The position numbers and the translations under genes were made by a program. The notes under the pieces were generated by a model. It saw only the letters and a list, made by a program, of their open reading frames with translations. It searched no databases and was not told the DNA's origin. Source: Rhina ancylostomus (lineage: Eukaryota). From it: 64,000 bases of DNA. The stretch is from the NCBI GenBank assembly GCA_030265395.1, contig JARFYF010000007.1, forward strand, positions 54,295,259-54,359,258, written 5' to 3'. This document shows positions 16,650 through 52,484 of this stretch, one piece after another. Each line of letters begins with the position of its first letter. Within the stretch, counting starts at the first letter, position 1.

Positions 16650-17571
16650 TGTTGTGAGAGGGGTATGTATTTGCTAAGTTTAACCATGTCTTTCCTTCGC
16701 TGATTTCTCATGGTATGTCATTTCCCAAAAGTCACTAACATTCACATCACAGCAACAAATAATTTATAAATGTCTCAAAGCCTTTGGAAATGCTAGGAGT
16801 CAGAGGTTGTGAGTTAAAACAATTAGACAAGTGCTCAAGTTATCCAAAGAGTGACTGTAATGAAAACCTCATGGTCTGCCAAGGACTATTTTGTTATACA
16901 TGTCATTTCATGTCAATGATATGGTTAACTTGCTTCAAGAACAACAAAAACTGATGAGTAGAGAAGTATTTTCTCACCTGAAGTGTAACCCCATTCCAAA
17001 AATGTAGTTGTATTGAAATTGCCTTCCCAGTTGAAGTGAAACACAACTGTAGGTGTAACATTACTGTAAGTATTTAAGTTGTATTTGACTACTTGGAATG
17101 TAATTTAAAAATTGTGACTTTGTAACAGATTAAAATTGTGTCAAACAGCCAACACAAATTTAAGACATGACAGGTCAAAGAACTGAATGTCGTGTTTATC
17201 AAAGCCAGGGAGCTGGAGAGGGTGCAAAGCCTAGAGCAAAGGGAAATCTGCAATTACAGTTGTTAATGGCTGGCAGGGTTTTACCTAAAAAAAGTAAGAC
17301 CTCTCAACCATTTAGGCATTGTGGTCAGGGAAGGGTGACATAGTTAGTTGCCAGAAACTGTGCCTCATTGGATCATCAATGGATTGATTCCCAGGATGGA
17401 TATGTGAACCCAGGGCTCAGCTTGTGGCATATTGTAGTTGAGAGAAAGAGAAGGGTATCATACATCAAGGATACATCCTTGACACATCAAGGATATTGTA
17501 ATCTCTCAACCTCCAGTAAAATAGCTTCAACACAAGAAAATATTCTTGCCCTTTGTTATTTACTAAAAACA
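16650..17571 (+). mobile_element. Solo LTR (922 bp) of the endogenous retrovirus family at 47.6-51 kb
   Basis: Termini TGTT...AACA; perfect 5-bp TSD ATAGT at 16645-16649 and 17572-17576. Colinear with 50028-51008 (e.g. ACTACTTGGA.TGTAATT.AAAA and GAGAGAAAG.GAAGGGTAT). Confidence 0.85.
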
Positions 17572-20500
17572 ATAGTTAGGACACCTGCACAACTTACAGT
17601 AATTCCATTTGTGGTCCTTTGTAAACATAGATAGCAAAGAAGATACATTTCTTACAGAAATGAAAAAATTCTGATAGTAATAATCAAATTGTGCCTTATC
17701 AAGGTGCCTTAGATGGGTAAGACTCAGTTGTAAATTGGAGCATCTGTTATTGCTTTTAGACTTTGATCTAGCTTCATTAACTGAACTCTGTTGACAGGTA
17801 TATATAGAAACTATAAAATGCAGTTCAGTTTTAAAGTAGAAGGCTAAAATATTCCCTCATGCATAAGCATCTTATCAGGCAATTCCGTTCAATTCATCTG
17901 GAATTTATTGGTTTGTACATATGTACTATGTGGTGAGAATTCAATTCCAATTATATGATACACACTTACACAATCTGATTGTTTTGCTACTTTCATGCAG
18001 TTGGGAGCTGTGGAAGTTAAAGAATTGAATGTTATGAATGCAGGCTGTAAGAAAAGAAGGCAGAGCTGGGGATGTAATAGGGAGTTGAGAGGTTAAATTC
18101 CACTGTGTTTAAGAGACTCCTCCTGGGAGAGAAATCTAGCATGTATAAGAGTAACTGTATCTTTACAAAAGGAGTGTCTCATGTGATTTGACTTTGATAC
18201 ACCGTTGTACCACACACTGCTGTTCAGTGAAGGTTACTGCCTTTAATAAAGGTTGTTCTGTAGATAACATCTCATAATTTGCCTATGCAAGCAACAGAAG
18301 TCAAAAGGACTTGCAGACTTTATAGGGAAGTTAAGGAGTGTGACACATGGAAAGAAATCCACAATATTTCAAACCAGAGACAATAAATCAAGATTTTTTT
18401 TTAAACTGAGTACTGCAAAATAAATGTCTTTTTTGATGGATGGTATAGCCACACAAAAAAGAAAAACTTACTGTGAACAATTTTTGCCTTCAAACTATCA
18501 GAGTAACAATATTATTTTGTAATTACATCACTATGAAGTGTAAGGGAAGCATTTGAGAAATAGCTATTCTGTCAAACCACAGTTCATGAAAAGTTCTAAA
18601 GGTCCTGCTGTAGTTTGTTTTGAAATCATCAGACTCTCTCACTCATCCTCCTTCAGTTTTCACTCATAAATTGACACCTACTATTGCTATCACAATGGCC
18701 TCATACCCACTCCTGTTGCCAAGAGCTATCTGCCTTACATTATCTTCAGCTGCCTCACTCTCTTCAATGATTCATAACCAGGACACACAATTTTCCACTA
18801 AGGCGCTTCTTCCTGTTGTTGAAGCGCTGTCTGATTAGTAGAAGTCTCACCCTGTTATAAAGTTAGACTCTAACGACAACCCTGGCAAAGGAAAATCACA
18901 AAGGATTGGAAATGATGAGGTGAAGTCCACCCATAGTGCATTGGCTGACCTTTTTCATTTCCTTTTTATCTTTCCACTTTCATCTCCAGGTCACACACAA
19001 AGTATGAAACCCAGGGCAACATTATGATCCCATGCCATTCCTACCTCAACCTTATTATTATATTAACTTTCTTTCCCTTGCCCTTCTTTTAAGTCAAAAT
19101 GGCTCTACAACCACTCAGTTAGGGTGGGGCAAGGGAATGATGTGAATAACTCTCTTGATGGTGAGCCTTCTATCAGCCATTGCCCTTCAGCCTTCTAAAT
19201 ACTTTGCATTATACAAATTAGGGATTAAGGATGTGCCCTGCAATGTTTCCAACTCTAAAAGCTGTATGGAAATACCTGTCTCTGAAGTACATACACATGG
19301 TGATTCAGAGAACAGGTGAGTAGCAGTGACAGCAAGTGGATTGAACAGCCATGGAAACTGTTCTATGGACCCCCCAAAGATCTAAGTTTCCAGAGCCCAT
19401 ACAGTTATAGTGACTCCAAGTTCAAGACATATACATTTTGAAAAGGAGGGTTAAACAGGGCTGTGCTGTCCATCTGCAAATGAAAGTGACCTGTTTTGGA
19501 GCAGGTCCTGGGGATCCCTTTAACTAGTTACACCATGATATCACTTGCTGCACTTCCAGAAATGTGTCTCTGCACTCATGCTCACTATATTGAGCAACTT
19601 AGTGCATATTTTACCATTTAAACTGGAAGCGGCATCAACCAAGTTCCAGGTTCAAGACTTCACATGTTATAATTCTCTCCAGCTTGTTACTGCATTTTTC
19701 TGTGACAGGAAAGAATTATGTGAGTCACACCATGGTGTATTTCACACAATTTATGTCTACACTTTGTGCTCTTTTCAATTATGAGTCTTTTGAACCTACT
19801 GTCCATAAGATCTGACAGGTGGATAAGATTGACAAAAATGCAGTCTCCTTCAGATCATAGCAATGTGACTTTAACATGAATGAAAGACCACACCTAAGCC
19901 CCCTACCCTCTCACGGACTGGTACTATATTGCAATTGCTGATTTGCTGCAAACTTAGAAGAAAGAAAAAGAGGAATTATCATTAAAAAAATGATTAAGTG
20001 TTGTGTAAGATGAAACAAAAGCAGAAAACAAGCATTTTCTATGACTAAATCAATATATTTGTACATCACTGATAAATTTATCTTTCTTGCCAGGTTCATG
20101 CTTTTAGTAATTATTTGGTAGCATCTACAGCCCGTTATCATTCATTTACTCACTTGCAAATTCTGCTTATGCAAGTATTATATAAATACAGAAACTACAA
20201 AATTTCATAATAATCATACAAGTCCTCAGGCTTCAGGAGAAAAGATAAAACTAAATAACCATCTGATATGTAGCAAATTAAAGCATTAATTCCCACAATA
20301 GATCTAACACATCATTACACACGGCTGAGAGCGAATGAAAATCTTTTAAATGTCCAGGCTTGAAATATTCAGGTACTTAAATATTCTAGACAAAACAAGA
20401 GATTCCCAGCCTTCTTGTTCATGCTGAACCGTCAACAGTATCAGTCAGCATTTCATAAGGTGTATGACAATAAACATGGAATATGAGATGAATGAAAAGA

Positions 20501-28420: not shown

Positions 28421-29307
28421 CCTATATTAAGCAAACCCATCACTAGAAGCAAATAGGTACTTCATGATGCACATGGTATATGTTTAGTGATATCATCAGT
28501 GATGTCATTGTTTAAAACTACACATCAATGGTTCATGAACTGCTGGTTCTTGAAAGATAGCATTAATAGAGTATTGCAACCTATTCCTTTCCAGGCCAGT
28601 CCCACAGAGTGTATGGCCTCGATCCTCCTTGGGCTAGTTTCTGTTTTAACTTCCCACTTGTAGTGATCGTCCTTGCTGCCCACAACCATTTTCCACTTTT
28701 TGCCAGGATCCTTTTGGTCCCTTGGATGTTTCCCACCACCCACAGATCATTTCTCCCATATTGCTGTTGTTCTCCCTGGTGTTCTGACCTTCTCCTCTAA
28801 CCCTTACCCAAACTTTTCCTCAGTACCCCTTGGGCACAATTACCTACTCATTCACAACAGTTTTCTTCCAACTATCTTATCCCAGATTATTTCCCCACAG
28901 TGAGTCTCTCTCCAAGCTCCCAGTTTCCTCCACTCACAACAAAACCTCTAACTCCCTCACATAACTCCAACAATAGCCCCTCAGCCTTTCTATGCAATCA
29001 TGCTGCCTGACACTCTTCCAACCTCTGTGGTCGGGGGTCATGAGGTAAGGCCTTTGAGGGTGATAACACATTAACAGTATATACCAGTACGCACAATGCT
29101 TTGGGGATGTCCATGATTGAATACCAGAACCTCAAGGACTTTGCATCAATTACCACATGAAAATGCATGTCGGAGCATCTCTAGCAAACCTCCCCCCCCC
29201 CCACCACCCCCCAACCTCATNNNNNNNNNNNNNNNNNNNNNNNNNNNNNNNNNNNNNNNNNNNNNNNNNNNNNNNNNNNNNNNNNNNNNNNNNNNNNNNN
29301 NNNNNNN

Positions 29308-30200
29308 TAGAACACTGGAAATTAACATACTAACTCTAGTCTAAAGATAGTCATGAAATAAAGCTACACATAGCTCAGAAAACATAGTGCACAGTTGCAC
29401 AACAAATTGAGAAAACAAGCAACTGTAACTCAAATAGATTGGCACCAACTTTAGAACACTGGAAATTAACATACTAACTCTAGTCTAAAGATAGTCATGA
29501 AATAAAGCTACACATAGCTCAGAAAACAATATTGACCCCAAAAATAACTATACCAACTCCATCATAACAGCATTCACCAGCCAAACAGAACAGCAAGTCT
29601 GGAACAGTAGCACAAGTCTGGAACAGTAGCACATCTGGCTGAATGAAACAGTAACCTCCAGCTATGTACATAACCCTAACAGAGCAACAGGTAATCCAGA
29701 ACTGAAGTAGAACCCAAACAGAGCAAACCCACTGCAAAATAAAAACAAACAACTTAACCTGCAATAACTCCATATTAACAACACAAACCCAAACAGAGCA
29801 ACAGTAACTCCTGAATAACAACATTCATTTGTAAAGCAAGCCTGAATCCAGAATAATAGCATTTATATGCCAACAGAAAAATGTTTACTCAGGCACAACA
29901 CTTGCAGACCAATAGAGCAAAACACACTCCAAAAACACAGCAAACAACCTAGAAAGGGTTGTTTAGAATATAAATTACAACTACACAGAATGACAGTTAC
30001 TTGGTCCACATACATCACCTGCTCCAGATTAATAGCCCATAATCAGGAGTTCTTCAAGACAGTAACCTATGTCCAATCATTTCTGGCTGCTTCATCACAG
30101 AGTTTGCCTGCAGAAGTGATGTTCCCAGCAATAATGTTTACAGCTTCTCAGAAAATAAAGCACTTTGTAACTGTATGCAAAACTCAGGCAAGGGTCATAT
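29308..30200. repeat. Degenerate 41-42-bp tandem repeat, block 2
   Basis: Units such as CCAACTCCATCATAACAGCATTCACCAGCCAAACAGAACAGC; contains a 77-bp exact duplication and a 19-bp tandem duplication. Confidence 0.75.
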
Positions 30201-30204
30201 ATGA

Positions 30205-30985
30205 CATAATGACCATATCCGACGAGAGAGATTCTAACACCTCTGATGTTCAATGGCAACGCCATTAACAAACCCCCATCAAACTTGGGATTCATCATTG
30301 ACCAGGCACTTATCTGGAGCCAGATAAATGCCGTGGCTACAAGAACAGGTGAGAAAATTGATTTTCAAAAGCAAGTGGCCCCACCTACTGAGTCTTCAAA
30401 GCCTTTCCATCAGCTGCAAGGCACAAGGCGAGAGTGCAGTGGAAGACCCTACATTTGCTTGGAGGAGTATGACTCCAAGGAGTGCTCAAGAAGCTTGACA
30501 CCTTCCAGGATAAACCAGCTTCATGACTTGTGGCTAGTCCATCACCATGCCCTCCTGTGCACTATGGCTGCAGTGAGTACCATCCACAAACTGCATAGAA
30601 ACATCTTAATCAATCATTTTGACAGCCCCACCAAAACCCAAATGACTTCTGTTGGCTGAAAGGAGAAACACGTGGAAGTATCATCAGCTACAGTTTTCCC
30701 ACTAAGCCACATATCATTTTGCTGTTTAAATATATTGGCATTGCTTTCTTGTCACTGAGACAAATTATTGCCACTGTTATTCTGGTGTTGGATCCATTCA
30801 AAGTATAGGCTTTTGCTGTTGGATTTAGTATTTATTTGGGTATCTAGTTAACTCTACTGTGGTAGTAGCTTCACTGCAAAGGCTGCAGTGGTTCACGAAC
30901 GCAGTTCATCACTCAATTTTCAAGAAGATTTAGTGATGGGCAGTAAACACTGTCCTTAACACATTGCCCACATCACATTAAGCTA
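30205..30985 (+). mobile_element. Decayed LINE family B 3' portion inserted in the tandem array
   Basis: Colinear with 56000-56690. Confidence 0.7.
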
Positions 30986-30989
30986 TGAA

Positions 30990-33950
30990 GCAACCCACCC
31001 AAAGCAACACTCTGGAAATAACAGCTTTACCAATCTAATCAGATCAATAACAATTTATGATAATTAATACTCAGAGCCACACCCAGTCAAGCAAACAGAA
31101 GAGAGTAAAAATAGTAACCTGAGAATAACTTAAAACAGCAGGACAGAACACTAAATCCATAACAACAGTAATCTTTTCCAATGAGCAGCTTCAATTTCAG
31201 AGTAACAGACTCACCCGTGAGTAATAATTACTCCAGAATTACAGCAAACTAACCAAAAAGCACAAAACTAAATTAACATAAAACAAACATACAACAGAAT
31301 AGAGCAATACCAGCTTCAAAATAACAGCAGTCAGTCATACAAGAACAATGGAACACTCATTCTAGAATAACTACTTGCAGTTCCAAACAAGAATAAAGCC
31401 AACTCAAGTAGTACATATGCTGGGACACAAAAGTTCAGATTGACAGCTTCACTGAACAAAATGACTTCAGCTAGATCAGATAAACCACCTAGCTGAGCAT
31501 AAATCAGGTCCAAATAATACTTTGAAATAAAGCAACCCTAATTCCAAACTATTGATATCAGGAAAATGAAACTATAATAATATCAAGCTTATCCAACAAA
31601 ATGAAACCAATTCCAGAATAGGAAAATTAAGAACCAGATTAATAACATCACCTCCAAAATAACCACTTCTGCTTCAAAGAAGAACTACACCAACTCCAAA
31701 ATAATAATATTCATCCTCACATTGAACACCACAAACTCCAGATTAAAAACATTTGCACACAATGAAAGCTACACTTGCTCCAGACTGAAGCAACAGCAGC
31801 TCCAGAATACCAGCAGTATACACTCAAATGTAAATGCTAAATAACTCCTCTTAGACATTCAGGTGGATCAAACACAATTCCAAATTCAGAACAGCAACTC
31901 TAAAATAACAAAAATAAGCAATGATTCCAGATTAATATTTTTATCTGAACACAAGGCCAAATCTAAAATACTAACATTCACCCCAAACTGAGAATCATCA
32001 ATTCAGAATAACAGTATTCACAAAGCTATACTAAGTGCAGAACACACTGGTGTATACACACTATAACAGCATTACCAATTCCAGAATAACATAATTGAAC
32101 AAGGCAAAATCTATACCAAAATAATATAAAATATTCAAAATAGCAACATCACCACTGGAATAACAACACTGCCCCCTCCTTGAAGAGAACACCACTGGGA
32201 CCTTAATCATTCACCTGAAAACCCAGCCATTTTCCCAGCAAAACATTCACAGCTGAACAAAGCAAGATCAATTCTAGAATGAAAGATTTTCTCATTGCAA
32301 AAGTAGCATGAACTCGAGAATAACAGCATTCACCACCAAACAGTGAAAATGATCTCCAGTTTATCAGTAAATGGTACACAAAGGAAAATCGGCTTAAGAA
32401 TGACTGCATTTGTCTCAGAACAGCACAACACCCAATTGAGAATAAAACTATTCATGCCTATATAGCAACCCCTATTTCAGAATTATACATGCACCCAAAA
32501 TGAGCAGCACCATCTCCAGATTAATACCATGAGTACTGAAGAAACAACATGAACTCCAGTGTATCTACACAAGCACACAAAAAGCCAACCTGGCTCTGGA
32601 GCATCACACACCAACAAACATTAGAGTACAAGAGCTAGAGTGTGGTGGGATAAAGCAGAGCCAACTCCACACCAAAGACTGCACCAGTTTCTCTGCATAA
32701 ACATATACAGACCAAATGAGATCAGCACTAACTTCAGAATATTAACATTCACATTAAAAATAAATACAAACTTCAGCATAACAGCATTCCCAGTGGAACA
32801 AAACAATGATAATAAATTAAAGCACCTGCAGCAAGTTGGGCCAAATCATTTCCAGCATTCACTCCCAAATAGGGCAACTTCAAATTCAAAATCAAAGACT
32901 CAGTGAGAAAGCAAATATCATGTCCAAACTATTTACAGACATCAGAGCAGAGTAGTACCAACTTTAGAATCACTGAATTCACACTCAAACAAGCAAAACT
33001 ACAGAATAAAAGTACTCTCATCTAAACAGGAAATCAAAATCCAAACAAAATCTTAAGATTAACACCATTCTTACATGCAGATAACAAAACTAACTTCAGC
33101 ACAGAAACATCCACACCCCCCCAAAAAAAGCCAAACATAACAGTAACACGCACACACCATTGGATTTCTGGAATAAAAGCACACACACACCTCCAGAATA
33201 ATAGCACCCACAAAAAAAGAGGAATAGAAATGTACTCATCCTTTCAACAAAACAAACCCAAATCCAGATTAATACACACTACTGAGTAGGGTAAAACCAA
33301 ACAGTGATTCCAGCTCCACCTACTCCATAATAAAAGCACACATAAATGCCCACACATGTAGGGTAAAACCATTGAGACTCAAGCACTCAGAACAACTGCA
33401 ACACAAGAAAAATAGCACACATTCCCAAAATGAGCAAAATTGACTTCAAAATAGCAACACCTACACATCCAAGCTGAGCAAAGCCAAATCTAAAGGAACA
33501 GAAATCAAACAAATGAGGAAAAAGATAATCCCTTTCACACACCTGTCGAAGAGCAAAACCCACTGCGGAGTAACAACACTCACTCCTTAAACTCAGCAAA
33601 AGAATTAAAGTGACAGCACATATACTAAAATAGGACAAAAACAACCCTAAAGTAACAATAATCATAATTATAAAAGGAGTACACTGACTGAAAATAACAC
33701 CTATATACACTGGTAAAAGAGGAACGCCATCTCCAGAGTAACATCTTTCAAGCTCATATAGAACAACATCAGCTTTAGGATAACATCACTCACATGCCCA
33801 ACAAGAACAATCCAGACTCTAAAACAAGTCACACAACTAAATCACGTCACTCTCATATCTAAGTGGAGTGAAACAGAATCTAATCAACAGTGCTCACATG
33901 GCTTATAAGAGCAAGACTGCTTCCAAAGTCATATCTCCCGAGCAAAGCAA
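30990..33950. repeat. Degenerate 41-42-bp tandem repeat, block 3 (largest)
   Basis: Adjacent 42-bp units at about 31692-31775: AACTCCAAAATAATAATATTCATCCTCACATTGAACACCACA and AACTCCAGATTAAAAACATTTGCACACAATGAAAGCTACACT. Confidence 0.85.
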
Positions 33951-33954
33951 TGTA

Positions 33955-35230
33955 GACATAAAATCATCAAAGACAGCCATTATGGATTTATGAAGGGAAA
34001 GTCTTTCCAATCTAACTTACTGGTTTCCTTTCAGGATGTGACAAAGGAGCTTGATCGGGGTAAGGCTGTGGTTGAAGTATACTTGGAATTCAGTAAGGCC
34101 TTGGACACTGTTCTTCTGGACAAGCTGGTACTGAAAATAAAGAAAGCGGGAATCAGTGGAAATATTTAACATTGGATACGTAATTGGTTGACCATTAGAA
34201 CCCATTATGTTGTGTTACATGGATCAAAAGCAGCCTTGGAGAATGTTACTGTGAGATCCCACAATGGTCTGCTTTGGAACCTTTAATATTTTTGTAAAAA
34301 TCAGGAGCTAGGAGCTACAAGCAAACTGACTTAATTTGCAGATTATACAAAGCTAATGAAGGTGACATTCAAATGCTAAACAGGTAAACTATCTGAGGAT
34401 TGAATATACTTCCGATAAAGACAGAAAATGCCGGAACACACAGAGGTGATGTAGGATCTGGGAAAAGAGAAACTATTTCTCTTTTCACAGATTCTGCCTG
34501 ACCCATTTAGTGTTTCTAGCATTTTTTGTTTTATTTCGGATTTCCAGTATTTATCGATTTGTGATTTTTCAATATACTTCAGAATTGGGTAGACAGGTGG
34601 AAGATGAAGTTCACTAAAGAGAAATACCAAATGTTTCACAGATTGACAATGAAATCTAGGCAGGGATTATTGCCTATTTGTAATAAAATATTGAGGATAG
34701 AAAATAAAACAGATCTGGCCTTTCTCATTGACAATAAATCAAAGCAATCACATCTATGTTCATCAGCATTAAGTAAAACAAATCAGATGTTGGAATGTAT
34801 AAATAGAGATTGAGCTGAAAAAATGAGGCAGCCCAGGAACACTGTAAAATGCTTATGCAAGTGGACTTTGAATAATATCCACTTTTATTTGTAACATAAC
34901 AAAAATATACTAAAACTGTTGAAAGCACATGGAAAAGGGCAGCTTGAAAGATCCAATGAATGAAAGGATTGGATTGTTATATAACTTGAACATGTGCTCA
35001 TTGGAAAATAGAGGACCGAGGTAAAATGACTGCTGTTTTTTTTTTAAGCATTATAAAGGGATTGATGATGGCTCATCTTGTTCTAAACAGCAGAACCAGA
35101 AAACACAATCTGTATTTAAAGAGGGTTAAGTTCAAAAGTTATCTGTGGAAACTAAGTGATCAGCCAACTGATAGAATAGGTTCTCAAGGGAAATGGTGGA
35201 TTTACTCCAAAGCAATTAACTAGTTTTCTT
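33955..35230 (+). mobile_element. Decayed CR1 LINE (RT to 3' region)
   Basis: IIKDSHYGFMKGKSFQSNLLVSFQDVTKELDRGKAVVEVYLEFSKALDTV; FADYTKL; LNILQNWVDRWKMKF. Confidence 0.88.
34413..34570. mobile_element. 158-bp fold-back Penelope-repeat insertion inside CR1
   Basis: Perfect 10-bp TSD AATATACTTC at 34403-34412 and 34571-34580. Hairpin centre GAAAAGAGAAA-CTA-TTTCTCTTTTC. Removing the insert restores the CR1 frame LNILQNW. Confidence 0.88.
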
Positions 35231-44640: not shown

Positions 44641-44692
44641 AATTGAGCAAGACTGACTTCAAAACGCAAATCACGTTGAAATGAAAATCAAG

Positions 44693-44876
44693 AAACTGTA
44701 GAAGCTGGAAATCTGAAAGAAAGACAGAAAATGCTAGAAATACTCAGCCGGTCAGGCAGCAGTCCAGGGAGAGAGAAACAGAACTGATGTATGGCCTTTG
44801 TCACAAATTGTTAACTCTGTTTCTCCACGGATGTTGACTGACCCGCAGAGCATTTCCAGCACTTTCTGTTCCTGTT
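44693..44876. mobile_element. Fold-back Penelope-repeat insertion
   Basis: About 44724-44787 is an inverted copy of about 44810-44876; the hammerhead segment is missing at the centre. Confidence 0.78.
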
Positions 44877-44989
44877 AAGATGACTACTTCATAGCCCCTT
44901 CCTGCGATAAGTGTCAATTCTGCTTTTCATACCTTTGGTGCAGAAAACATGAGTTGACTGAAATCATCTAGTAGATGTGCAATGGTTAT

Positions 44990-45640
44990 GTAGTCATATT
45001 TGGAGGAAAAGGTGCAAACTGAATTTGGATTGATGGACCCAGGTAGCTAATGTCAAGGCAATTTATGACTGAGATCAAGAAATTGACCAAATGTTTAATA
45101 TCCCAGAATGAATAGAGGGATTCAAGTACAGTCAGTGGACAAGATATAAAAACAGAGTGAATGGCATAGTTAAACTATGCCTGTTCTTCTCTGACCCTCT
45201 GTTTTTAAACTATCCACAAGCCTATAATATTCACAACAGAGAAATCAGCTCAGCAAGGCTGCTTATGTCCAGTTGTATCTATGCCTTTGGAAGTGCTAAC
45301 AGGAGCCATTGAATTGAAAATCATCAGAAAGAGTATGTTAGCTAATCAGACAAGCAAACAGATTTCAATTGGAAATACCATTGTATGCCTGAAGGATTTG
45401 TTCCTTTACACATGGCATTTCATATCAATATACAGTCAGCTGATCTCATAATAGAGATGCAGGTGGAGAAGTTTTGTTTTATTCCCATCTGAAATGCAAT
45501 CCCATTGTGAATATTTAACTTGACTTCCCATCTGAAACCCCACTGACATGAAACTATTATAAAGGTAACCCCACTGTAACAATTGAAGTTGTGTCTGAAC
45601 ACTTGGAGTGTAATTCAAAATTGTGACTTGTAAAATACAG
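44990..45640 (+). mobile_element. 3' end of another copy of the ERV family (pre-PPT region plus partial LTR from about 45162)
   Basis: Colinear with 49850-50510 (AAATTGACCAA, AACAGAGTGA, ACTATCCACA, CTATAATATTCACAA, CTGAAACCCCACTGA, ACTTGGAGTGTAATT). Confidence 0.8.
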
Positions 45641-45937: not shown

Positions 45938-46330
45938 TGTCAAGATCTTGATCGAGAGCAAACTCACAGAGAACCCAAATGTGGCACACTGATACAAAAC
46001 TGGAGTCACATTACCTCCTCAAGACGAACACAGGCAGTAACCGGAAGGTATCTTGCCTCAGAGATCGGAAGAGGAATCCCAATACGAACTGGATCTTCAC
46101 AAAGGAATAAAGAACACAGGACTGCTCTAGAATGAGCCACTCTAAGCAACTAGGAGCCAAAGGTAGACCAATACTCTGGCAACTAGTGCCACAGAAACAG
46201 ATACTTATGCTAGGCCCCTGATGGGGCTCAGGTGTGTATCGTTATACAATCAGTCCAGCATGGAATCCATGTGCTGGACAATAAGGCATTAATGGAGCCA
46301 AATTGAGGGCCAGAACTCAGAACCATGACA
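45938..46330 (-). mobile_element. LTR (Gypsy-like family 1), 393 bp
   Basis: TGTCA...TGACA termini; reverse-complement homologue of 2499-2757; left flank CCTAC. Confidence 0.9.
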
Positions 46331-46690: not shown

Positions 46691-47449
46691 GGGTCATCTG
46701 GCAGTCAGTCACCAGCAATGACTCATTACGGTGGTGAGGTGCAGCCCTGAGACCCACATGTCAGTGCAATCACTTCATCAACAGCCTGGAGCCATGGACA
46801 AGGGCACCAGTGGAGGGTAGGGGTTCATACCAGGTTCCTAGCACAGCAGCATGCGGCATTGGGGAGGGGAGGGCAAGGTTTTGTGCCAGGTTCCTGGCAC
46901 CCAGGCACACAAGTACTATCAGTAACACATCCATATATAATGACGTTTTGACCTCTTTGCCCCCTATTTCCATTAGCACTTTCATTCTTGAGAACACATC
47001 CTGAGTGGTAAGTGAAGCAGCAGTACATTTTGCATGGAACTTCATTACATAAATATACTTGCAAATAAACTAACCCAAAAAAACTTGTAAATACCAGCAG
47101 AGACATATGTTTCTCCCCATTGACGTAATAGCGGTGTAAATCAATGTGAGAAAATTCACCTGCAAAACGTCTATTCCAAACGGAGTCTGACTTTGACAAT
47201 TCAATCAAAAGATCTGCAAATGTGAAAGGTAAGCAAAGGTAAAAAATGTACAGATGCATCCCTTAATAATACATTAAAATATTTGAAAAATATATTTGTC
47301 AAAATGAGATGTTAGTGCTGGGTAATGGAATACCTCAAGCATTTCAGGTNNNNNNNNNNNNNNNNNNNNNNNNNNNNNNNNNNNNNNNNNNNNNNNNNNN
47401 NNNNNNNNNNNNNNNNNNNNNNNNNNNNNNNNNNNNNNNNNNNNNNNNN

Positions 47450-47620
47450 AGGTAGACCAATACTCTGGCAGCTAGTGCCAGAGAAACACAGGTACTTATG
47501 CTAGGCCCCTGATGGGGCTCAGGTGTTTATCGTTATGGAATGAGTCCAGCATGGAATCCATGTGCTGGACAACAAGGCATTAAAGGAGCCAAAATGAGGC
47601 CATAACTCAGAACCATGACA
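47450..47620 (-). mobile_element. Partial second copy of the family-1 LTR after a gap
   Basis: Matches 46161-46330 with roughly a dozen differences (by eye); right flank CCTAC at 47621-47625. Confidence 0.9.
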
Positions 47621-47629
47621 CCTACATCA

Positions 47630-48380
47630 ACCCCAAATGATTTTATTGGGTTTTGCCAACCTTTAAAAAAGGTAATATACATTGCCTAGTGCTGGTGGAT
47701 AATGTCACCAAATGGGCAAAAGCAGTGACCTGCGAAACAGTCACAGTTTGGTGGATGATAAAGATACTGGGCAAGGGACTGTTCTCCTGGTAGAATCAGC
47801 CCAGTGAAGCCATTTTACAGGCTAGTTTCTGTAGACCACTCTGGAATTATTAGGCATGGACTGTAAGTGGTACATGGCTCAGAACTTGCAGTGATCAGAG
47901 ATTAGAGAGGGAATAAAGACGATCTTGAAGCTAGCCCTCCAAAAAGAGTTGGAAGGGCAGTCCACTAAATGAGATAAGGTGTAGTAATTAGGATTAGAAC
48001 CAGAAATTCACAGGGCATGAAATACTCTCAGAATGAATTGGTAACAGGGAGACCCATGTGTACTCCAACATTTTTCCTGGTCCACACATCATTTGTGAAA
48101 TGGGTAGTGGAAGGAAATTAGGACAATCATGTGGAAGAGTTATGGGAAATGTTAAAGTAGATACACCTTGATGGTACCCAAAATATAGGGAGATCTCATG
48201 AAATTACCTAAATGGGCTCCAGGCAAACTCCAGGAAGTGGAGGACCAGGTGATGGAACAGAACTGTGTAGGGATGGGAGTATTTGAAAGGGTCACTATTA
48301 TATTCTGAGCTAAACAAGTCCAATGCTGTGTGCAGTTCAGCTACGAAAGTGAATTGATCATACACGTGTGTTGTGTGGGA
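47630..48380 (+). pseudogene. Retroviral-type integrase (DDE core plus GPY/F C-terminus), decayed
   Basis: DFIG/LPTFKKGNIHCLVLVDNVTKWAKAVTC...VESAQ*SHFTG*FL*TTLELLGMDCKWYMAQNLQ*SEIREGIKTILKLALQK...KYSQNELVTGRPMCTP...EVEDQVM...KGHYYILS*TSP. Confidence 0.92.
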
Positions 48381-49853
48381 ATGTGAAGATGGTGAAGCAG
48401 AGGAAGATTTAATCCTTTTTTTGGTGGAATCTATTCAGAGAAGCCGACCCTGGTTCAACAATAGAACAACAACAACTACAACAAATTCCATTGCAGGGGC
48501 AAACAGTTATAGTTCTTTGGAAGAACAATTGATAGAGCTTAAAGATGTTCCAACTTGATGTGTAAGTCAGGTGACTAAGCCATCAGGTTGGATAAATGTT
48601 CATTTATCTTAGGGTCCTAACCCCAGCAGGAAACATATGATGGACCTTTTGATTTGGGAAGATGCTTGCAATGCTTGGAGGATGTTCCAGGGAAGGAAAG
48701 ATGTGGAGGAGGCTGTGGAGGCAGTAAGGGGACCATCAGAATTCCTGAACATTACAAGAGTAGTGAGGGATAGGACAGGACTAAACAGGATTAATGGTGA
48801 TTATTTTACCAATTGATCCAATCTATTTAAAAATGTTGTGACTCTCCCCACAATAGGCCAAACTGAATACAAAGGAAGTTTCCAAATTAATAATAAACAG
48901 TCAGTTGAAAAGTTTCTAGAAGGATAGGAATATCGTTCCTACAGCAAGTGCAATTAGACTGGGTCTACCAGCACAAGAACATAACTGGTAATTTAAAGGA
49001 TAGTGGTGACAAAAAATGACATACTCCACTGGATTACACAGTGGGTGTGGATGGAATGATATGACAGTCCCAGAGAAGACAAGATGTAGTCAAATCTCTG
49101 CCTTGATAATATAATGGAGCATTCTCCATCAATGAGTGGGACCAGGATCCCTATCACTGGCAGTAACTACAGGCCAACACTTCCTTGTGAGGTGAGCCTA
49201 CAGAACGAAAGTGGAGCATGAATACTGTGTGACAGCATGTTCCTGGAATACCAGCACAGGGACCAATAGGCCTGTCCAGTTACATAGATTTTATTTTGTT
49301 TTACCCCAGGTTAACTTAGAAAGCTTGGAGTACTGGTTTCACTAGACACGTGTTCACATCAGCAGTTGGATGTGGTGACAGTAGAGAGGTTAGAAGAGCA
49401 ATTATATCATTATATAGTGTGCCTCAGGCATGACACTTCAACCTTACCAGAACACTACGTAGAGCTATTGTATTGAGTTAACCAGTCATAAAAGCATTAT
49501 TACACTCTAACACAAGATAATAAAAAGAGCTGATAAGGGGATCTCTCATGGGTGATGACTCATCACAGTGGGATTTTGGCTTGAATACTGAAGTTTGTTC
49601 AGGGATCAGAATTCTATCATATATTCGGCTTGTGGCACATCTGCTCATTATGCGTGAGTTGATCTGGAATCTGCACCAGAAACAGAGATGGAAAAGACTG
49701 GCCAAGTCTATTGCCAAAATTATAGCAAAATCCTGACAAGAAGGCCTGCTCCAGGCTGAGGTAAGAAGATTATTACACAATATACTAGCTCAGCAGGAAC
49801 AGGAGAAACCTGATTTCTTGCGAAGTCAAAACTTCAGTCACTTGAGGGTGTAA
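48380..49853 (+). pseudogene. Decayed envelope-like frame of the ERV
   Basis: Lies between integrase and LTR. Fragments: SSLEEQLIELKDV, WEDACNAW, VTLPTIG, GCGWN, EYCVT, ACPVT*ILFCFTP, LPEHYVELLY*VNQS*KHYYTLTQD, WDFGLNTEV, a hydrophobic stretch IRILSYIRLVAHLLIMRELIW and a basic tail. Confidence 0.65.
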
Positions 49854-50027
49854 TCCTTTGCAGGAAGAGTGACCAAATGTATCTACATTAATAGGACCAG
49901 CTGTATGTACAACAGAGGAAATTTGTGGCTCAGAATTTCAAAATTGACCAATAATTTAGTATCTCAGCAAGCCATAAATAAATAAGGACTCTGTAAATGT
50001 ACAAGTGGTGAGAACAGAGTGAGTGAG

Positions 50028-51008
50028 TGACAGAAAAAGAGAGGAATGTAATTGCTAAACATTAATCATGTCTTTTCTTCTCTAACTCCTTGTGGTTTTT
50101 GACTATCCACATCTATAATATTCACAATACAGCCATCAGCAAGGCTCTTTATGTCAAGGTTGCCCCCAGAGCCTTTGAAAATACTTATAGTCAGGAGTTA
50201 TTGAGCTGAAAACTATTAGAAAGAGCACTTCAACTGAGTAAACAAGCAGTCAACAGTTGGAAACTGCTGTATGCCTTAAGGACATGTTTGCTTATACATG
50301 GCATTTCATGCTAATATGTAGCAATATTTTGAAACTTTTATTTTCCCTACCTGAAATATAACCCCATTCGAAATACGAAAGTCTATTGAAATTACCATTT
50401 CACCTGAAACCCCACTGAAGTGAAAACCCATTATAAGTGGAATGCATTACTATCATTGAAATTGTGTCCAACTACTTGGAGTGTAATTGAAAATTGTGAA
50501 TTTGTAACATATTAAACCTGTAGCAAAGAGCTGAAACAGATCCATAACAGGAGAGGTAGGGTAACTGTGGAGTGCAGAGCTGAAGTTCTGTTTGGATCAA
50601 AGGAAGAACTGCAATCCCAGCTGTTTATTCTAAAAGGGTTTTACCTTTAAAGTAAAACCTCCCAGCCCCAAAGTGCAATGTAATCAGTCACCATCAGATG
50701 CTAGCTGATTGACCACTGAGACAGAGGACCCCCTTCCCTACCAAAAAAACCTCCCAGCCCCAAAGTGCAATGTAATCAGTCACCAACAGATGCTAGCTGA
50801 TTGACCACTGAGACAGAGGACCCCCTTCCCTACCAAAATGGTTTTGAGCAAAGCAGTGGCCCAGCTCATTGGAGATGGAGTGATAGATAGAGAGAAAGGG
50901 AAGGGTATTATATTGTCTACTGCTATAATGAGGTTATTATAATCTTTCGGCCTCATTTCATCACAAAATAAAGAATTCTAGTGTATTTATTTTTTTTATT
51001 GAATTCAC
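50028..51008 (+). mobile_element. 3' LTR of the ERV (ends approximate)
   Basis: Colinear with the TSD-bounded solo LTR 16650-17571; purine-rich tract around its start; AATAAA at about 50967. Confidence 0.8.
50654..50838. repeat. 92-bp near-perfect tandem duplication inside the LTR
   Basis: AAAACCTCCCAGCCCCAAAG...CCCTTCCCTACCAAAA twice; one mismatch (CCATCAG/CCAACAG). Confidence 0.95.
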
Positions 51009-52484
51009 TTTTCAGAATTTCTGCATAACCAGCAGGTAGTAATTCAATCACCAGCCCATTGTAAGCCATCCTTCAGTTACAGGACTGATGGTGTAAATCT
51101 GGTGATGGAGGGGGCACATGATCGTTACTTTCATTCATTGTGTGTGACCAACTGAACTTTTGACTTATCAGGGTATTCCTTGCATCTCAGGCACCAGCGT
51201 AATTAGCTAAATTGATGTTGTGTGTCCGACCATCCTTCAACATCTCAACATTGCAAAGGTAGAAATGGCTTCTCTTGGTGCACAGACTGAAGTTCTCCAA
51301 CTAATTTGTTCACACCATTACGTTCTACTTATCATAATCTGAGGCATTTGAGAAAGCAGCTGTGGGTATCAGTTCAATGTTCAAATTGGTGCTATGTCCT
51401 GAGCTATCCTGGTAAGGAATTTATTTTCAATGCTTATACTGCAGATTTCTGGGAAGCAGCCATTCGTTCTCAATGGTTTCTGATTGCATGATAAACATTA
51501 ATCAGGGACTTACTTCTCTGTAGCAGGATATTCTGACACTCTGATACCTGTGACCAAAAATAAATGTCAATAAACTAAATTACATAATCCTATTTGTTTT
51601 CAGCATATTGCCTTTGATTTTTTTTCTGGTGTGAACCATGATATTGACCACTTCCAAGTTATTTTGCATCATTCAGAAAATTTGACTAGATACTTCCTCA
51701 TGAGCCACCCTCGTGATCTTGGCACTGTTTTCACATTAGGGGTGTATATGATTACATAATTCCTTATGCATTAATCCTTTTACAGCATCGTAGGGACATT
51801 GTTGTCTTGAGAGTGCCCGTCATTGTACACTTCCAGAATGACTTGCACACTGCTTGGAAGACTGCAAACTAGGTAATTACTGCACTCCCCTTCCCCCATC
51901 CCTGCAGTGAAAAATCCTTCAACATCTCTGATCTCTAGCCATGTACCCCGACTCATTCTAATGACATCTCACCAATCCAGCAACATTACCATATCCAATG
52001 TGCTGCCAATCCCGATCTCCTCTATCCAGCTTTTGATTCCCCATATGAATTGCCAGTCTTTCCTTCACTGATCTCTCAAATTACCTTCTGGACCCTTCTA
52101 TACATCACTCCTATGCACCAAAAATCAGCACCTGGTGTATTGTGCCCAAGGCCTTGCAGTTCTCTAAAGTCTGAATGGGGGTACTAGAATTTCTAGGCAA
52201 CAACAGAAACCTGTATGGTCACTTAGTGACTCATTTTGCATATATGATTGTATGACATTGTGCCTATTGCTGGGGAAGAGAAGGGGGTGTTAATGGCAAT
52301 CACACATTTCAGCAAAGCAATACAGCCCAGATATAAATGGGAATGCTGAAGATGCAGAGATGCTCAGGGGAGTGGGAAGATCCCAGCAAGTCTGCAAACA
52401 CAGAGGCTCTGGTTGGCCTTACTGTCTGGGCCACGATTAAATAATGCTCTGCAGCTTCCTACCCAATCATGAAAATGTACTGGT

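Follow-up and report, generated by a model that had tools for sequence, protein, structure and literature searches.

What kind of retroelement left a decayed integrase, a broken downstream reading frame and a terminal repeat in the genome of Rhina ancylostomus, and did it carry an envelope (Env)? The number of envelope gains during the transition from long terminal repeat (LTR) retrotransposons to retroviruses remains debated; the accessible part of one study favours separate env gains in lokiretroviruses and canonical retroviruses and expects more intermediates (PMC9040795). The stretch of DNA analysed here (hereafter the window; 64,000 nucleotides of contig JARFYF010000007.1) is vertebrate-like and repeat-rich, with 14 N runs. 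A sequence-only reading of it had proposed a fossil endogenous retrovirus, either lokiretrovirus-like or from another, undescribed env-bearing LTR lineage, whose envelope might resemble viral fusion (F) proteins. The chondrichthyan host suggested there is plausible in view of the repeat at 44683-44790. We found that positions 47639-51048 are the dead 3′ end of an ancient LTR retroelement, consisting of an integrase, a probable third gene and an LTR-like repeat, and that this remnant is real.

Structure and age of the remnant

The order of the parts follows the general layout of LTR elements, with a DDE integrase, then a purine tract, then an LTR-like repeat with a TG start and a poly(A) signal. 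The LTR-like repeat (49849-51048, plus strand) is ~1.0-1.2 kb long, starts at 49849 (TG) or 50047, ends at ~51008-51048 and carries AATAAA at 50967-50972. A 15-nt pure purine run at 50032-50046 (plus strand), followed by TG at 50047, is a candidate polypurine tract and LTR start. The LTR that had been noticed behind the frame was thus recovered, together with two other LTR-like copies in the window (74-75% alike in aligned columns), and the three are about equally distant from one another (K2P 0.31-0.35).

The fragment at 44989-45637 has the same orientation and is 75% alike over 603 aligned columns (K2P 0.31), its homology beginning exactly at TG 49849. It is either a cut-off 5′ LTR or the 3′ end of a paralogue; if the LTR starts at 50047, the fragment is the paralogue 3′ end and not the 5′ LTR. 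No target-site duplication was seen by eye at this fragment. The second copy, at 16657-17608 on the same strand, is 74% alike and has a purine run at its start; its homology begins at 50038 and extends to ~51048, and no integrase or third-gene match was found beside it. Within the LTR-like repeat, 50654-50837 holds a 92-nt tandem duplication (98-99% identity) that is either recent or an assembly artefact.

At its 5′ side the element starts at ~47621-47640, directly after a very high-copy short repeat (47450-47620) that sits at the break and is not part of pol. The summed contig depth of this repeat was ~2.2 million, compared to 6.5 for the element interior (run X1), and this depth ruled out 47540-47620 as an integrase zinc finger. 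An assembly gap (47350-47449) lies just upstream, and we attribute the missing reverse transcriptase (RT) to truncation of the element by the repeat and the gap. In agreement with the sequence-only reading, gag, protease and RT gave no signal in tiles over 40-54 kb (best scores 59 and 43, from tiles scored without a null), to which the gap may contribute. An Rfam search over 44-52 kb found nothing. The high-copy repeat has a second copy at 46161-46330 and recurs at 2499-2559, adjoining assembly gaps; its depth runs into the millions in X1 and X2 and is far lower in X4, which suggests a young SINE-like family that expanded in some of the organisms.

At 80% likeness the interior of the element has a single copy, and near-identical contigs from four organisms (A to D) cover it in 4 of 13 listed runs. 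About one contig per run covered most of the integrase and the third gene in X1, X2 and X4, and X3 covered them partly. Interior differences were 2-4% in organisms B and C and 222 over ~3000 bases in organism D, whose contig (record 32 of run X4) continues for 1788 bases past 47621. These contigs are likely orthologues, so the insertion would be older than the split of the four organisms. Runs X1-X4 gave no sign of a young multi-copy family; contigs can document that a sequence is present but not that it is missing. Parts of the LTR-like repeat are matched by further contigs in other runs. Dating the insertion with the 44989 fragment as the cognate LTR was abandoned, as K2P 0.31 at 2.2e-10 (PMC4422223) gives an implausible ~700 million years. 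The same K2P exceeds the distance to organism D about fourfold.

The integrase and its nearest relatives

The claim of a DDE integrase held up well. With an aligner that tolerates frameshifts, writes X for stops and for breaks between frames, and takes local dinucleotide shuffles as its null, a dead catalytic core was aligned at 47639-48202 (plus strand), scoring 154-166 against a loki and Gypsy profile (z 26-31, null maximum 47) and reaching z up to 32 against single references. The core is read across three frames with X at 10 breaks; 46 of 186 residues are identical to a loki integrase row in the profile alignment, the first catalytic Asp is kept, and the position of the second is not Asp. 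Ordinary database searches miss this integrase because it is split over three frames. Single-frame queries with X at the breaks gave no match among 117 candidates of a word-index search, and viral contigs searched with an integrase piece yielded nothing; such searches are weak negatives, each frame carrying only part of the old gene. The GPY/F-like tail fared less well: a probable C-terminal tail of this type can be seen by eye at 48203-48410 (plus strand), with a score that 101-194 of 300 shuffles also reach (z -0.5 to 0.3).

Natural reference sequences for comparison were gathered by motif scans. Four rows (L051-L054) are called loki from the motif and the gag-pol-env layout given in the accessible part of PMC7947760, and the Env of L054 weakly matches PF00523. 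Two of them (L054 and L051) are near-complete lokiretrovirus elements on public metagenome contigs that are probably fish host DNA; L054 has gag, pol and env of 544, 1745 and 568 codons.

Other reference rows carry labels that we take to be walleye-virus-like (L037, L040), Xen1-like (L006), MMTV and JSRV-like. Against 47621-48450, all four loki integrases scored 110-118 (25-29% identity), and the best of 39 other reference rows scored 74. Among 22 further rows the best was Gypsy-like at 96, a score biased upward because the search motif for that row had been built from the integrase in the window, and the next reached 80. Canonical retrovirus integrases scored at most 80, foamy integrases at most 61 and betaretrovirus integrases (9 rows) at most 42, and the snakehead integrase was absent from the ten best rows.

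The lokiretrovirus-like character proposed in the sequence-only reading was therefore supported in part: loki integrases score best, but the TVTC motif is absent and a joint clade of the window integrase and loki had a support of 0 in a 21-row quick tree. Where the window reads VLVDNVTKW, loki integrases mostly have TVTC-x-F-[TS]-KW, with one TITD, among those seen in the supplement of PMC7947760. In a 26-row tree, from which three fetched rows were excluded as short or doubtful, the window integrase formed a long branch (2.81). It joined loki and canonical retroviruses at a fork left open (93/93), fell outside the clade of sampled loki rows (100/99) as well as that of the canonical retroviruses (89/89), and was nearest to loki by tree path. 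Approximately unbiased (AU) tests rejected no placement (canonical retroviruses, p 0.43; Gypsy-like rows, p 0.43; epsilon/gamma, p 0.35), and a clade with snakehead and foamy viruses in the 21-row tree likewise went unrejected (p 0.35-0.43), all with a reference set without vertebrate Gypsy clades, Odin, CGIN1, ERV-L and fish foamy-like elements. Decay by itself could pull a true loki integrase down to the observed identity. Because the tree leaves the fork open and TVTC is absent, the loki link appears to hold for the integrase as "nearest of the references tested" and falls short of membership; the integrase leans towards loki, and we do not file it there.

A probable third gene in the env position

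Between the integrase and the LTR-like repeat, where an env would be expected, a third reading frame is present in broken form (48410-49853, plus strand), and is likely an env. In a frameshift-tolerant test this region showed coding potential on the plus strand (z 3.3-3.5, 0 of 200 shuffles) versus z 1.0-1.1 on the opposite strand, and the minus strand, LTR and flanks stayed at z 1.8 or below (11 regions tested); the test is a weak one, its integrase positive control reaching z ~1. The signal comes mostly from the 5′ half and may be inflated by a short (ACA)n run near 48460-48490. Stop depletion was weak (matched by 4 and 8 of 100 shuffles) and the longest stop-poor runs were at chance (34% and 11% of shuffles), and the region shares a raised G content with the integrase (23% and 26%, compared to 19% in the LTR and flanks). 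We consider it fairly likely that 48410-49853 was a gene and, from its position, length and coding signal, likely that this was an envelope gene.

Several details of this region as first described had to be revised. The decayed frame of ~1.5 kb is not a single frame, as each frame holds 23-35 stops in 498 codons. The motifs GCGW, YCVT, CPV..FCFTP and WDFGLN are all present, but the first two sit in one frame, the third in another and WDFGLN in the remaining one, so neither the Cys pattern nor a beta-rich region is established. A hydrophobic segment at 49593-49649 (plus strand) does follow WDFGLN (49569-49586), with a basic stretch and then ~65 codons of tail behind it; as a signal it is no better than chance, its KD19 of 1.6 being reached by 49% of shuffles, and it is by its position that we judge it a likely membrane anchor. 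WDFG was not found in the accessible part of the supplement of PMC5512871.

The absence of a CX6CC motif and of a gamma/epsilon immunosuppressive domain (ISD), as stated in the sequence-only reading, was borne out (CX6CC, 0 in three frames). Ordinary retroviral Env references, a comparison of the kind proposed at the outset, gave no match to the third gene: z was 0.2 and -0.4 for gamma/epsilon TM (15 rows), -0.6 to 1.3 for foamy SU and TM (17 rows), -0.3 to 1.0 for beta-type TM (5 rows) and -0.6 to -0.2 for snakehead TM. The method is blind to F likeness at the level of fold: compared with each other, intact Envs of foamy viruses and loki reach no more than z 1.0-4.1. No match was found to 16 single reference open reading frames (ORFs; 15 in env position), in screens where unrelated ORFs reach z 4-5 as a chance tail, or to 10 Env pieces at four settings each, or to an invertebrate Env (L034, Pfam Monjiviricetes_fusion). 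Searches with single frames were again weak negatives: a word-index search with the third gene gave no match among 480 candidates, and one frame of 47641-49560 found nothing when run by full HMMER search against 1.84 billion representatives. None of 12 queries with X at the breaks matched Pfam, including the third gene in all three frames, in a search where even an intact loki Env scores no better than E 0.002; PDB searches with such frames gave best matches of E 0.17 or worse, and a single-sequence AlphaFold model of 48361-49053 had a pLDDT of 30.

In these comparisons, which would miss a likeness at fold level, the F-like envelope proposed in the sequence-only reading gained no positive support. 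A loki Env profile of 54 sequences (the query and 53 of 62 homologues, with rows 39-86% identical to the teleost-type query, a limit on its reach) scored at z 0.3 and 1.1, with 38 and 13 of 100 shuffles scoring equally high. This negative carries weight because loki Env is, by eye, conserved from lamprey to frog, visibly so across lamprey, coelacanth, frog and teleost, and because the equally decayed integrase was easily found. Only two RxK/RR sites were present, both behind the anchor (49686 and 49795) and none upstream. No fusion-peptide-like stretch follows such a site in any of the three frames, though decay may have removed both site and peptide, and a long helix behind a cleavage site and fusion peptide was not found in the third-gene frames.

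Two short motifs recall the Cys loop of beta-type TM proteins, namely C-x7-C-F-T-P at 49273-49308 and CVT-x3-W-N-T-S at 49226-49255; each was found in 0 of 1000 shuffles, as patterns picked post hoc. MMTV and HERV-K carry C-x7-C-[VI]-T-P, and the third gene contains one CX7C, where 1.0 is expected by chance. As a positive control, MMTV finds the HERV-K TM in the PDB at 6e-22; the third-gene fragment does not find it at E up to 10. The likeness to the HERV-K/MMTV loop, made out by eye, scored at chance, as did a likeness by eye to snakehead TM (an AW..G helix, LPTxG and SKC..TG). The snakehead TM itself (L043, 7985-9250) shows by eye a long helix, a Cys-bearing beta-like region and then another helix with an anchor, an arrangement that resembles F-like Envs, and has no Pfam fusogen match.

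Rival origins and a proposed history

Taken together, the evidence makes it somewhat better than an even bet that the window holds an ancient LTR retroelement whose remains do not permit family placement, its third gene having likely encoded an Env with a membrane anchor, of a type that matches none of the Env references tested. The best reading, with a third frame for which no homologue was found, is an unclassified, likely env-bearing LTR lineage near the junction of loki, Gypsy and retroviruses. Of the two options first offered, an undescribed env-bearing LTR lineage fits best. A more specific version, in which the element represents a further env-bearing lineage beside loki and Odin in sharks or rays, its env captured independently of canonical retroviruses and loki, is possible but rather doubtful. 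Odin, compared here by description only, is the sister of loki in the same tree region and differs in being env-less and known from sea anemones, according to the accessible part of PMC9040795.

Among the rivals, the one that survives best is an env-less Gypsy element (Metaviridae), in which the 1.44 kb would be either an additional gene for some protein other than an envelope or a 3′ untranslated region of unusual length. Most Gypsy elements of vertebrates have no env, and the Ty3/Gypsy group also includes errantiviruses with F-type or gB-type Env. The window element shares with this group the LTR layout and a DDE integrase whose N-terminal core motif is similar (best row 96); its Gypsy placement is unrejected, its anchor-like segment is at chance level, and its third gene matches no Env profile. 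The plus-strand coding signal speaks against a plain untranslated region, however, and a near-star mixture-model tree groups the integrase with loki and retroviruses against the Gypsy-like rows (93/93); an env-less Gypsy element is unlikely. In the accessible part of bioRxiv 2023.10.26.564294, no intact vertebrate ERV was found to be homologous to the invertebrate env-bearing elements of that study.

A true but heavily decayed lokiretrovirus with an F-like Env seems to us improbable. Loki integrases score highest and lie nearest by tree path, loki Env is called to mind by a short stretch near 48800-48870 that looks beta-strand-like, and the window shares with the lokiretroviruses described in the accessible part of PMC7947760 the order integrase-third gene-LTR, a similar third-gene length (~500 codons, versus an Env of 568 aa in L054) and an anchor-like end, as well as the lack of CX6CC and ISD. 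Against this stand the missing TVTC motif, the missing RxKR site, fusion peptide and long helix, and a loki Env profile at chance while the equally decayed integrase reached z 26-31. The same source lists lokiretroviruses in five vertebrate classes, Chondrichthyes not among them, and in 0 of 3 Orectolobiformes genomes. Among the papers listed on lokiretroviruses, cartilaginous hosts included, in a largely open-access literature outside Repbase, none reported such an element.

A canonical retrovirus decayed beyond recognition (snakehead- or spuma-like, or with a beta-type TM) is the least probable origin: placement with retroviruses is unrejected, snakehead-like ERVs are known from a chimaera (Callorhinchus; accessible part of PMC4422223) and snakehead and foamy Envs likewise have no ISD or CX6CC (the foamy one being F-like by structure, in the part of PMC11468914 available), but those Envs, at ~1000-1130 aa, need twice the space in the window element, the two beta-like motifs lie in different frames, the beta-type, foamy and gamma/epsilon profiles and the snakehead TM all scored at z 1.3 or below with the HERV-K TM unfound in the PDB, betaretrovirus and foamy integrases score low, and beta-type Env was unfound in 974 fish genomes, as far as the accessible part of bioRxiv 2021.11.23.469661 goes.

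Returning to an unclassified, likely env-bearing lineage, its parts suggest a history like that of other LTR elements, in which the LTR would have given rise to RNA, the purine tract would have served as a priming site for reverse transcription, and the DDE integrase would have inserted the product into the genome. The third protein, most likely a class I fusogen to judge from its position, length and C-terminal anchor, would have let particles pass between cells. One copy may then have been fixed before organisms A to D split, lost or been separated from gag, protease and RT, and decayed since; the sequence data give no sign of a present function. If true, the combination of a loki-leaning integrase with an unrelated envelope in an old element of vertebrates would mean one more envelope gain and one more host class. 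A single decayed fragment that lacks RT can point the way for a genome-wide search but does not amount to evidence.

Two further observations were made along the way. At 29000-34000 the window contains 5 kb of strongly A-/C-skewed DNA with ~10 loosely spaced 46-nt look-alikes (family D1), possibly a decayed satellite. Two contigs filed in a bacterial metagenome-assembled genome (L076 and L078) carry retroviral pol and ISD-bearing env frames, and likely represent host contamination.
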